DNA of 30,124 bases, from IMG/VR virus record IMGVR_UViG_3300030109_002488, positions 1 to 30,124 of that record; one strand, given 5' to 3'. Source of the stretch: a virus (taxonomy: Duplodnaviria; Caudoviricetes). A program made the position numbers and the translations under genes. This document shows positions 15,237 to 19,143 of this stretch, in pieces. Positions within the stretch are counted from its first letter, which is position 1, and each line of letters begins with the position of its first letter. A model generated the notes under the pieces. That model had not been told where the DNA came from. It was given only the letters and a program-made list of their open reading frames with translations, and made no database searches.

Positions 15237-15468
15237 TTAATTTAATTTGTATTCTTCCGTTAGTTACTGTAATTTTAGATGTCTTAGATTGTCTGTTAAA
15301 TTCATCTATGTAAGATTGTATGTCAACCTTATCATATATAAATGATAAAAATACTTGTATTTCTTTAGCTGCTAGTTTAGTAGATTCTTCTAAATTTTTA
15401 GCGTTTATACTAGCGTCAAGTAAAGCGTGATAATCTTTAATAGATATAGTAACAGATCCTTCTACCAT
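15211..15468 (-). CDS. Hypothetical protein
   Basis: 85-aa ORF overlapping both neighbours in the operon. Confidence 0.7.
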   Translation of the reverse strand: MVEGSVTISIKDYHALLDASINAKNLEESTKLAAKEIQVFLSFIYDKVDIQSYIDEFNRQSKTSKITVTNGRIQIKLNEEKENNS

Positions 15469-15725
15469 TTACCTAATAGTTGATGTTCAGAAATCATAAT
15501 GTATTGCTTATCGTCTACATCTACAATTATAGCTTCTGATCTAGGGTCAACCATTACGGTTTCTCCAGTTTTAACAAAATGGCATTGAGGACCTACAGCA
15601 AGTACTTCGAGTATATTAGTATTTAAACTCTTTGCTGTTTTCTTATCTAAAATAATTCCTGAATCTGTTTGTAGTTTACTTGGGTCTGGAAGGACAACCC
15701 ACGATCCGTTTGGTTTAAAATTCAT
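15462..15725 (-). CDS. groES: Co-chaperonin GroES (Cpn10)
   Basis: FKPNGSWVVL...TDSGIIL...EVLAVGP...VKTGETVM...YIMISEHQLLG is the Cpn10 pattern, including the mobile loop. Confidence 0.88.
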   Translation of the reverse strand: MNFKPNGSWVVLPDPSKLQTDSGIILDKKTAKSLNTNILEVLAVGPQCHFVKTGETVMVDPRSEAIIVDVDDKQYIMISEHQLLGKW

Positions 15726-16189: not shown

Positions 16190-16414
16190 ATGGACACACC
16201 TCACAACACTATGGTTCAGATAGAATCATTCATCGGAACAAAGAACCCTAACTACTTCATCGTAACCTTCAAGGATACTGAGGTAGAGGTAGATAATGAA
16301 CTACATGTAACTCAATACGATACTAGACTTATTTTAAAATCTAATAAAGATAAGTATGAGAAACTCATTAACAAGGGTACCATTGTCAAAATGAATACAA
16401 CTCCTAGAGATTAG
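16190..16414 (+). CDS. Hypothetical early protein
   Basis: 74-aa ORF with an A-rich leader, followed by a terminator. Confidence 0.65.
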   Translation: MDTPHNTMVQIESFIGTKNPNYFIVTFKDTEVEVDNELHVTQYDTRLILKSNKDKYEKLINKGTIVKMNTTPRD

Positions 16415-16429
16415 GGGTTGTATTTTTTT
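16394..16429 (+). terminator. Rho-independent terminator
   Basis: AATACAACTCCTA-GAGAT-TAGGGGTTGTATT followed by a T-run. Confidence 0.8.
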
Positions 16430-16736: not shown

Positions 16737-16825
16737 AAATAATAATCAAATCAATACAATACATACTAATCATAACAGGACTATCATTAGGTATCCTGTT
16801 TTGGTTATGTATAATGTATGTATAA
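16733..16825 (+). CDS. 30-aa single-TM peptide
   Basis: MKIIIKSIQYILIITGLSLGILFWLCIMYV*. Coupled to the upstream ORF. Confidence 0.45.
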   Translation: MKIIIKSIQYILIITGLSLGILFWLCIMYV

Positions 16826-16860
16826 CTAATCAATTAATCATTAACTAAACATTATCAATC

Positions 16861-17151
16861 ATGAACAAAGAAAAACGATTTACATCCTATGATACAGAAG
16901 GTCCAACTGACTTCGACTATGTTGGATTCCATCTAGACACAATAGATGATATATTAAAACTAATAAAAGAATGTTACACAATTGTTGGGACAGGTTATAG
17001 TCCATGTACATCTGAGAAACTAGATGAATTAAAACATTACACTGATAAACTAAAAGGATATGTTGGACAAGGTCCTTATCATGTTTATCACTCTCAACCT
17101 TTACCAAAAGGTGGAAAAGAATTAACAGTTAAAGTCTTTCCAAGAGATTAA
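16861..17151 (+). CDS. Hypothetical early protein
   Basis: 96-aa ORF with an A-rich Bacteroidota-type leader. Confidence 0.7.
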   Translation: MNKEKRFTSYDTEGPTDFDYVGFHLDTIDDILKLIKECYTIVGTGYSPCTSEKLDELKHYTDKLKGYVGQGPYHVYHSQPLPKGGKELTVKVFPRD

Positions 17152-17325
17152 AACATAACACCTGAACATGTATTCAAACTGTTCATTTAGGTATTTATAG
17201 ACTAACCTTGTTTTCTAGATAAACAAAACTAATCTTGACACTGGATCTTAATGGGATCGATACCATTAAACCACATTCTTGAAATAACATACTTTGATAT
17301 GATTTATTTAGTAAGTAAAGGTGTC

Positions 17326-17376
17326 CTTATATTGTGATGTGTATCACAACTGATGATTCCGAAAGGATGAAATAAG
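17326..17376 (+). ncRNA. Hammerhead ribozyme, type III
   Basis: CTTAT-A, stem I TTGTGAT/ATCACAA, core CTGATGA, stem II TCC-GAAA-GGA, core GAAA, with ATAAG pairing CTTAT (stem III). Predicted cleavage after AUA at 17331. Confidence 0.85.
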
Positions 17377-17410
17377 AAAAACTAACTTCAGGGTTCGAAA
17401 CCTGTAGGAA

Positions 17411-17795
17411 GAACTAGTAGACAATAAAGGTCTTGTGGGAACAAGGGACTGAGTCAACTGATTAATCACCTAGATGTGATGTCCTATAAATGTAGGATGT
17501 CTGTCCTTTTAACAAAGGAATCAGGGTAACTGTGAAAAACAATTAAAACTTAATTGTAACTTCGACACTAATTATTCAAATGGTATACCATTACCACAGA
17601 GTAATATAACATTAATTGTAGTAATTTATGTAATGTATAGTAATATATAAACATATCTGTTGAAAGAAATGTTATGTGTCAAGAAATCTAGAGGGTAGAA
17701 CCTCATTGGTCACAGTTTGTAGTCGAAGGACTACCTAGTTCGTGTTTTAAAGTCACCAATGGAGGTCACAAGTCCTCATATAAAAGACTGAGTGG
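17411..17795 (+). ncRNA. Candidate large structured ncRNA with pseudoknot (unassigned)
   Basis: ORF-free, with more than 10 compatible stems. Long-range pairs include GAACTAG/CTAGTTC and AACTGTGA/TCACAGTT, plus a crossing CATTGGT/ACCAATG. Confidence 0.6.
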
Positions 17796-17832
17796 AACAT
17801 TTAAATAAAATACTAACTAAACACAAACAATC

Positions 17833-18030
17833 ATGACAACAGAAAAAGAATTAAGACACTTACCAATTAACAGTATAAATTATACTGAAGAACAAAAGAT
17901 TCGATCTAAAAACTTAGAACTAACGAGAGCACTACAAGATGTTGATAGACTGACATCAGATAATGTTCAGTTTAAACTTCAGATTATTGAGTTAAAACAA
18001 AAGATAAAAGAGTTAGAATCAACTAACTAA
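17833..18030 (+). CDS. Small coiled-coil hypothetical protein
   Basis: 65 aa with a heptad pattern and an A-rich leader. Confidence 0.65.
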   Translation: MTTEKELRHLPINSINYTEEQKIRSKNLELTRALQDVDRLTSDNVQFKLQIIELKQKIKELESTN

Positions 18031-18094
18031 ATAATTAAACATTTATTACGACAAATAAACTAATTAATTATAAACATTTAAAACAACAAACATT

Positions 18095-18310
18095 ATGAAA
18101 ATCAAATTAAAAGGAGTAACAGTAGACATTAGAAGAAATGATTTAGACGAACTGATTAAACTACAACACATTATCACTAAAGAAATCAAAACAAACAAAC
18201 GTAAAGTTAGGGGACAATTACTTGAGTTGTCATTAGATTTAGTTAACACAAGAATATCAGACATATCATATGATCTTGCATATTCTGAAGAATTACACAC
18301 AATAGTATGA
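18095..18310 (+). CDS. Hypothetical protein
   Basis: 71-aa ORF with an A-rich leader. Confidence 0.65.
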   Translation: MKIKLKGVTVDIRRNDLDELIKLQHIITKEIKTNKRKVRGQLLELSLDLVNTRISDISYDLAYSEELHTIV

Positions 18311-18486: not shown

Positions 18487-19092
18487 ATGGAAACAAACAC
18501 AGGAACAGTAGAAACATTAAAGAATGGAGAATGTCTATTAGTAGACGCAAGAGTTGTAGCAAATGATAAAATATCACTACAATTTGCAGAAGTAATTAGA
18601 CCAGAAAACGAACAAATGAGTTTATTAGCATATTCTAATCGCTATGATGACTCATTCTCAAATAAAGCTAGAAGATCATGGTTAATAACTGACAGACAAG
18701 CTGCAACAGAAGATTATGGGGTAGATTTTACAGATGCTAATTCAAATTGGTATGAAGGTCCTAAAGGTACAATGTTAGACTTAAATATATTAAATCCTAC
18801 ATTAAATGGATTTAATGTTAGACTAGCAATTAAAGAAACAACTGAACCAACACCATGGCAAGAGCAAAACTATGAGACTGCTGCTAAAAGACGTGGTAAA
18901 AATGGACCTCACATGTTACACAATGGTGAGTATATCTTTAGCAATGTAATTGTTGTTGGTATAAAAGGTGACCAAGAGGTTAAACATACAAGATTAGAAG
19001 CTGATTCTATAGATGTAAAAGAGAGTCAAGTTGAATTAACGACATCAAACGAAATGGTTGGTGAGTTACAGTCAAATGAAATAGGACTGTAA
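18487..19092 (+). CDS. Hypothetical protein (201 aa, beta-rich with acidic tail)
   Basis: Clear ORF with a strong leader and its own terminator. Function not recognised. Confidence 0.8.
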   Translation: METNTGTVETLKNGECLLVDARVVANDKISLQFAEVIRPENEQMSLLAYSNRYDDSFSNKARRSWLITDRQAATEDYGVDFTDANSNWYEGPKGTMLDLNILNPTLNGFNVRLAIKETTEPTPWQEQNYETAAKRRGKNGPHMLHNGEYIFSNVIVVGIKGDQEVKHTRLEADSIDVKESQVELTTSNEMVGELQSNEIGL

Positions 19093-19101
19093 ATTATCTA
19101 T

Positions 19102-19143
19102 AATATCAAGGGGAGAGAATATCTCCCTTTGATATTTTATTTA
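19102..19143 (+). terminator. Rho-independent terminator
   Basis: AATATCAAGGGGAGA-GAATA-TCTCCCTTTGATATT followed by a T-rich tail. Confidence 0.85.

Follow-up and report, generated by a model that had tools for sequence, protein, structure and literature searches.

A 371-nt structured RNA with a predicted twister ribozyme at its 3′ end in the early region of a putative marine crAss-like phage

The early region of a putative marine crAss-like phage carries a structured RNA of 371 nt that, judged by comparison of its homologues, is a real, uncatalogued phage RNA with a built-in 3′ ribozyme. The RNA is optional. On balance we consider it probable that a twister ribozyme frees its 3′ end, that the resulting tail pairs with the 5′ leader, and that a loop mediates dimer formation; the product may serve as a scaffold or decoy towards host proteins, resembling GOLLD and ROOL.

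The stretch of DNA analyzed here (the window) comprises 30,124 nt of the IMG/VR record IMGVR_UViG_3300030109_002488, a virus record that is 35% complete. Its capsid protein is ~30% identical to capsids of crAss-like phages, PHROGs names other genes as portal, terminase, polymerase A, helicases and primase, and the sequencing runs holding window sequence are marine or aquatic. The large RNA is encoded on the + strand, in a stretch of small unannotated ORFs that precedes the replication genes. We infer that this locus is the early region of a marine crAss-like phage, by analogy with the crAss-like phage phi14:2, for which early intergenic long ncRNAs of obscure function have been reported to be abundant and persistent (10.1101/2020.03.07.982082). 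Homology to these RNAs was rejected, as the best covariance-model score was 14 bits and nhmmer gave no match. The early intergenic region of phi14:2 (L511:4031–4502, NC_021806.1) contains a tmRNA match (E 5.4e-16, 46 bits, cut-off 47). Terminator-like strong hairpins at 16393–16425 and 19102–19136 flank the block of small early ORFs and ncRNAs in the window, and a scan for sigma-70 promoters yielded 15 sites versus 22 in shuffles, i.e. fewer than in shuffled sequence. A GroES co-chaperonin (phrog_3188) is encoded at 15462–15725; GroEL is found in the carrier record G005.

The large RNA is part of a cassette between two small ORFs:
16861..17151, + strand: small early ORF upstream of the cassette site; encodes 96 aa, has no PHROG and is found whether the cassette is there or not
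17193..17807, + strand: optional cassette of RNA A, hammerhead, large RNA and twister, missing from the 96–97% identical relatives L001–L003
17833..18030, + strand: small early ORF downstream of the cassette site; encodes 65 aa, has no PHROG and is found whether the cassette is there or not

The empty site is present in wild populations, where contigs of the DNA run X3 jump from 17198/17205 to 17842; in DNA run X2 the region 16821–18300 is covered continuously. Among 46 distinct relatives whose sequence extends at least 2.5 kb upstream of the anchor gene, 6 carry the large RNA. Each of five carrier records holds a single copy, with region and strand constant. An ORF starts 16–46 nt downstream of the RNA in 15 of the 16 loci checked; this downstream ORF varies widely between carriers, and we found neither a constant neighbouring gene nor a mobility gene associated with the RNA. 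Several short sequences recur at the locus. An A-rich gene-start repeat (16832–16880 and 17804–17852, 76% over 49 nt) may drive swapping of early modules. A motif starting ACCTGAACA (17160–17185) lies at the left indel edge directly after the stop of the 16861 ORF, with variants upstream of the large RNA in L173, L177, L228 and L308. A recurring 60-nt motif beginning AGTGGATAAAT, with a possible pseudoknot and no Rfam match, adjoins the large RNA upstream in L177, L262 and L295.

Homologues were collected from loci fetched around relatives of the 201-aa gene at 18487 and around sequence patterns. A profile search (nhmmer) of 506 loci identified 22 distinct homologue groups, of which 16 had been reached without using the twister. 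A covariance model of the 5′ part (R1, 5′ 153 positions only) added L217, a distant member (E 7.9e-7) that can be aligned along the entire RNA body and brings the total to 23 groups; applied to 99 twister or pattern loci, the same model found no new member. Sequence identity of the large RNA between deep branches is 46–60%. As the carrier G005 has no match to the capsid and polymerase of the window phage (terminase and portal belong to the same PHROG families), the RNA is, by this sequence comparison, present in at least two phage lineages. In a blastn search of 50,697 GenBank phages with the RNA the hammerhead alone matched, and the L141 homologue gave nothing meaningful against GenBank phages; a twister-tail pattern matched once in 185,579 GTDB genomes, with no large RNA upstream. 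A pattern scan combining hammerhead and T-loop was discarded as too loose (120 loci, 0 homologues).

The RNA, its parts and the adjoining ribozyme have the following limits:
17378..17748, + strand: large structured ncRNA, 371 nt (homologues and covariation; RNA-run contigs within 17345–17697)
17378..17382, + strand: 5′ leader, predicted partner of tail 17744–17748 after the twister cut (leader/tail covariation)
17389..17404, + strand: first hairpin with palindromic loop UUCGAA (17394–99), a predicted intermolecular kissing loop (palindrome, covariation)
17411..17741, + strand: outer helix 17411–17/17735–41, closing domain I, domain II and hairpin 17719–34 (covariation)
17420..17524, + strand: domain I, an interrupted hairpin (17420–55) and a four-way junction (17458–17524) (alignment)
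17528..17717, + strand: domain II, nested multi-way junctions (17564–68/17676–80; 17606–13/17668–75) (alignment)
17742..17800, + strand: type-P1 twister ribozyme, predicted cut U17748/A17749 (RF03160 match, covariation)

Leader, palindromic hairpin, outer helix, domains I and II, last hairpin and a short tail follow one another from 5′ to 3′. An earlier reading of this DNA, made from the letters alone (the sequence-only reading), had set the limits at 17411 and 17795 and thereby omitted the 5′ hairpin and included the twister at 17742–17800; the RNA itself extends from ~17378 to 17748. The region was rightly described as ORF-free, as no ORF of at least 50 aa overlaps.

We aligned 15 of the 21 full-length sequences, after setting aside two near-copies and the four that contain a 40-nt insert. 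A two-hairpin 40-nt insertion in domain II of L200, L207, L285 and L311 marks a tolerant site. The consensus fold comprises 120 pairs in 20 helices; 94.7% of its cells are paired (35–45% in slid controls) and 87 of the 120 pairs show compensatory changes. None of 500 shuffles came as high, although these numbers favour the structure since the consensus was derived from the same alignment. A separate check was provided by RNA contig X19, which departs from the window by seven substitutions in domain I: six constitute three compensatory pairs and one turns a G-U into an A-U pair. This covariation, and not folding energy, is the real support for the RNA. The region folds better than shuffles (z −3.8, 0 of 100), but the z-score was rejected as proof, because the reverse strand yields −3.35 and, of 16 control windows taken from other parts of the genome, 3 fall below −3.5 as well. 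Comparing all columns with each other for tertiary pairs produced only noise at 15 sequences.

All stems proposed earlier were located at their positions, and their fate in the homologues differed. The outer helix GAACTAG/CTAGTTC is 100% paired in the 15 sequences with compensatory changes in 4 of 7 pairs, and the hairpin TCCTAT/GTAGGA proved to be 10 bp long, all ten compensatory. The homologues also support CCTTT/AAAGG, GACAC/GTGTC, GAGG/CCTC and the hairpin 17719–34; all 7 counted pairs of ATAACATT/AATGTTAT are compensatory, and the helix closing domain II (17528–35/17710–17) shows a compensatory change in L477. CTTGT/ACAAG is conserved, with one-sided changes only. The ACAATTAA/TTAATTGT stem falls into a length-variable stretch outside the consensus. 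ATCAC/GTGAT had been placed in the wrong register, as the family keeps a 3-bp stem (17465–67/17473–75) instead. The proposed crossing pair 17704–10/17755–61 had to be given up: its register is lost in homologues and its 3′ half takes in pseudoknot bases of the twister. The second GACTGAGT, read as a repeat, is the twister core.

Strong structural selection at ~50% sequence identity speaks against a selfish or neutral passenger RNA that spreads by recombination between the repeated early gene-start sequences, and so do the single copy in each of five records, the constant region and strand and the lack of a mobility gene there. Such a passenger would account for the patchy distribution (6/46), the clean indel, the motif repeated at 16832 and 17804 and the occurrence in a second phage lineage (G005); we nevertheless give this explanation very little credence.

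The 3′ end of the RNA leads directly into the twister. RF03160 matches at 17744–17798 over its whole length (1–68 of 68) with 37.2 bits and an E-value of 1.1e-5, below the cut-off of 67.2; the twisters of the homologues reach 42–57 bits against the same model. Having recognized no known family, the sequence-only reading was right about the body of the RNA and missed the match at its 3′ end. The features of RF03160, namely all helices, the two pseudoknots and the U-A cut site, are present and covary, whereas one pseudoknot pair is A-U and not G-C and the 5′ strand of P1 is at the same time the tail of the large RNA. In 12 distinct sequences P1, P2, P4 and both pseudoknots are paired in 100% of 216 cells, with 11 of 18 pairs compensatory, and the bases U, A, A and GAGUG are invariant in 17 of 17. 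We take the cut to lie between U and A and the conserved A and G to have catalytic roles. The predicted cut site is 7 nt behind the outer helix. This ribozyme is found at the RNA 3′ end in 22 of the 23 homologue groups with all helices and both pseudoknots, and the twister pattern in none of 40 RNA-less relatives. We consider it highly probable that it cuts at 17748/17749 during early transcription, which would leave a cyclic-phosphate end.

The exception is L217, which possesses the whole fold and no twister. A tRNA-like element is located 10 nt behind its RNA (L217:1901–1992), with a 7-bp acceptor stem, a canonical T-arm and two hairpins where a tRNA has its D and anticodon arms; ARAGORN and Rfam made no call on it. 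RNase P would presumably cut at its start. As L217 swaps the twister for a tRNA-like element, what stays constant appears to be the need for a defined 3′ end, for which the twister would be the usual tool. In MALAT1/mascRNA, which is eukaryotic and protected by a triple helix, RNase P cutting at a tRNA-like element sets the 3′ end of a long RNA; the likeness of L217, one of 23 homologue groups, is in logic alone, a tRNA-like element behind a long RNA. Theta ribozymes, which are HDV-like, have been postulated to trim phage RNA 3′ ends (PMC10879173). As is predicted for the twister described here, they cut at their own 5′ side and would thereby trim the upstream phage RNA, with a tRNA as client in gut phages instead of a 371-nt RNA in marine phages (PMC10879173).

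The tail left by the predicted cut is the twister's own P1 strand. Because this freed tail covaries with the 5′ leader, the ends of the RNA likely pair after the cut. The leader/tail column is A-U in 7 and G-C in 6 of the 15 sequences and unpaired in the window and L477, where the leader is shifted by one column; on a tree built without these columns the pair requires 3 changes, at least 2 of them forced. The leader–tail stem is 9 bp long in the same register in the twister-less L217 and only ~4–6 bp in twister-bearing members, in which off-register matches of 5–6 bp occur too. With good probability the tail would swap from the ribozyme to the leader, releasing the spent twister and closing the molecule against exonucleases.

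The leader and the 3′ strand of twister P1 share the tail bases as partners, and all three covary. The same competition would be expected of a cis switch or natural aptazyme with the large RNA as sensor, in which the fold sets cleavage and the expression of the downstream early gene, and the nearby ORF start at 15 of 16 loci would suit such a device. However, the downstream ORF differs widely between carriers, the gene downstream in the window is retained in cassette-less relatives, and L217 keeps fold and stem in the absence of a ribozyme. We thus regard a switch as improbable and prefer closure of a released RNA.

The loop of the first hairpin points to an association between molecules. All 22 sequences have a palindromic hexamer here (UUGCAA in 19, UUCGAA in 3), and 5 of 5 pairs in the hairpin stem are compensatory. 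The switch between GC and CG suggests an intermolecular contact, because adjacent bases cannot pair within one loop; such a switch marks the intermolecular kissing loop L21a of GOLLD (10.1101/2024.12.08.627333). The tree allows one or two origins of the switch, and an AU test does not reject one (p 0.43). Predicted duplex energies are −4.1 and −4.5 kcal/mol for like palindromes and +0.6 kcal/mol for UUCGAA with UUGCAA. UUCGAA in the window also fits a T-loop, a reading that was rejected as L140, L162 and L469 cannot form the closing pair. These features suggest that the large RNA forms a homodimer via the first loop; we rate the chance of a loop–loop homodimer or higher oligomer as slightly better than even.

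Two further elements lie upstream of the large RNA:
17228..17327, + strand: RNA A, a separate small conserved RNA closed by GACAC/GTGTC (4 distinct sequences)
17326..17376, + strand: type III hammerhead, predicted cut 17331/17332 (core CUGAUGA/GAAA/U16/H17, covariation)

The hammerhead was already noted in the sequence-only reading and is genuine. It contains the listed hammerhead core (C3 U4 G5 A6 N7 G8 A9, G12 A13 A14 A15, U16, H17; PMC3088659), and its three stems are paired in 45 of 45 cells with 8 of 15 pairs compensatory, in three sequences only. Among the variants reported as tolerated are the U15.1-A16.1 found in L477 and L140 and U-U at the stem II base (PMC3088659). Rfam gave no match to the hammerhead at E up to 10, and blastn found a weak match (E 0.01) in intergenic DNA of Pseudomonas phages. 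The expectation that it co-occurs with the large RNA did not hold: the window and the 88%-identical L477 are the only cases in which it adjoins the large RNA, and in L140 it is located 1.1 kb and three ORFs upstream. Instead it goes with RNA A, whose four distinct sequences match their own profile with E ~1e-22 and have no Rfam match; RNA A followed by a type III hammerhead is found in three of them (window, L477, L140). Since the hammerhead always lies directly after RNA A, it is likely the 3′ trimmer of RNA A, and the 5′-OH on the large-RNA precursor would be a by-product. The earlier picture of a large ornate ribozyme-matured phage ncRNA is supported in part; the constant maturing element would be the 3′ twister and not the hammerhead.

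In L347 an HDV-like fold, recognized by eye only, follows RNA A ~60 nt upstream of the large RNA. Weaker relatives of RNA A are followed by an HDV-like fold and then GOLLD in L160 and L171; this minimal fold (L160:3118–3175, L171:2620–2677) precedes the Rfam GOLLD match by ~300 nt, its first helix covaries between both and it has no Rfam match. The HDV-like descriptor missed L347 and has a background of ~1 match per 5 kb. Type I hammerhead-like motifs were observed in the RNA-less relatives L129, L130, L132, L135, L143, L151, L166, L189 and L235, upstream of the 201-aa gene and in L166 downstream, with two each in L143 and L235. The 5′ end of the large RNA is likely set by an upstream ribozyme and trimming where one is present, and otherwise by a host nuclease.

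Contigs of 6 of 6 RNA runs (4 studies) lie within 17345–17697, between the predicted cuts, which hints at a discrete transcript. The runs were chosen for containing the cassette and are available as contigs only, which give no strand and reach neither predicted end; RNA A, the twister and the flanking genes have no RNA-contig cover, which is not evidence of absence. An extra 151-nt piece in run X8 lies in a gene (18061–18211). Contigs of three studies (X8, X16, X19) start at exactly 17419, an invariant A, where reverse transcriptase may have stopped, the RNA may be nicked or the assembly may break.

Taken together, the two predicted cuts in the window and L477 would leave ligatable ends, the 5′-OH of the hammerhead and the cyclic phosphate of the twister, so that a 417-nt piece (17332–17748) could be excised and closed into a circle by a host RtcB-type ligase. 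The predicted proximity of the RNA ends and the by-eye HDV-like fold upstream in L347 would fit a circle as well. The other homologues carry no adjacent hammerhead, however, and an RNase P cut leaves a 3′-OH, which would then be the end produced by the L217 trailer. RtcB was found in none of five carrier records, two of them at least 90% complete, although hosts may encode one; no back-junction was seen in the contigs of the six RNA runs, none of which reaches the RNA ends. A circular RNA seems quite improbable to us, and a linear molecule with paired ends is preferred.

Size, junction complexity and invariant unpaired bases in loops and junctions could also denote a catalytic RNA of a new kind, or one that serves as a subunit of an enzyme of phage or host, and the shared contig start at 17419 could be an internal break. 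Against this, invariant bases are few overall, the longest unpaired run is 8 nt and leaves no long single-stranded template, a reverse transcriptase (PF00078) is missing from five of five carrier records (two at least 90% complete), with none named among the 36 window proteins, and no neighbouring gene is constant. We consider this reading, too, quite improbable. We found no partner protein or target of the large RNA, and the best antisense match in the remaining window was 13 nt (E 0.13).

A host-facing scaffold or decoy fits best, because the RNA is optional, ORF-free, conserved in structure and early. The role itself, for example titration of a defence or RNA-binding protein, is a tentative proposal, and the scaffold or decoy is a guess, backed indirectly by the palindromic loop and by those relatives that hold GOLLD in this region. 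GOLLD occupies the early region in 3 of 46 relatives with 212–226 bits (L146:3250–3632, L160:3471–3840, L171:2973–3342); partial GOLLD matches were seen in L247, L248, L254 and L255. Large RNA and GOLLD never co-occur, which is not significant at 6 and 3 of 46 loci. Like the large RNA, GOLLD (RF02032) and ROOL are big multi-junction phage ncRNAs of obscure function and low sequence conservation; both form RNA-only nanocages (10.1101/2024.12.08.627333), and GOLLD shares the palindromic loop with the GC–CG switch (10.1101/2024.12.08.627333). The large RNA is smaller (371 nt versus ~580 for ROOL and often >800 for GOLLD; 10.1101/2024.12.08.627333), and unlike them it has a built-in 3′ ribozyme, no supported pseudoknot and a single candidate intermolecular contact, where five or more are reported for GOLLD/ROOL.

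None of these families is recognized in the RNA itself. Rfam gave no match in the window at gathering level, nothing from Rfam 15 (ROOL, OLE, raiA, IMES, RAGATH and others) over 17378–17741 at E up to 10, and in 17 homologue loci the body stayed unmatched at E up to 1. The GOLLD model RF02032, which covers the conserved 3′ domain, did not match the window or the homologue loci, with L146, L160 and L171 as positive controls. In line with the sequence-only reading, no match to RNase P, tmRNA, tRNA or group I or II introns was obtained (no ARAGORN call, no Rfam match); its call for homologues and covariation was answered by the 23 groups and 87 of 120 compensatory pairs. A group I intron match (53.6 bits) was seen in the relative L170 (10221–10448). 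We found no description of the family in the literature, covering few subscription journals; supplementary motif tables or the database of a 2026 preprint could hold it unnamed, and passages of 10.64898/2026.10.21.760802 mention neither twister nor crAss.

Possibly, if doubtfully, the elements combine into a self-maturing RNA-only assembly, in which the twister cut would act as a folding switch that hands the P1 strand to the leader, the palindromic loop would build a dimer or cage, GOLLD would be swapped in one early slot as an anti-host RNA tool, and twister, hammerhead, HDV-like folds and tRNA mimics would be interchangeable 3′ trimmers.

Most twister and hammerhead ribozymes of bacteria and phages are reported to lack an assigned job (PMC6765202), and for GOLLD and ROOL structures are available but no function; the large RNA family joins the orphan-ribozyme and orphan-RNA questions. 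The twister gains a testable job at the 3′ end of a large RNA, with the tRNA-like element of L217 as a natural control. With 371 nt the RNA is a small candidate for an RNA-only oligomer, and UUCGAA and UUGCAA constitute a natural palindrome pair in which like should dimerize with like. As near-identical phages with and without the cassette exist, the effect of the cassette on the phage is testable.
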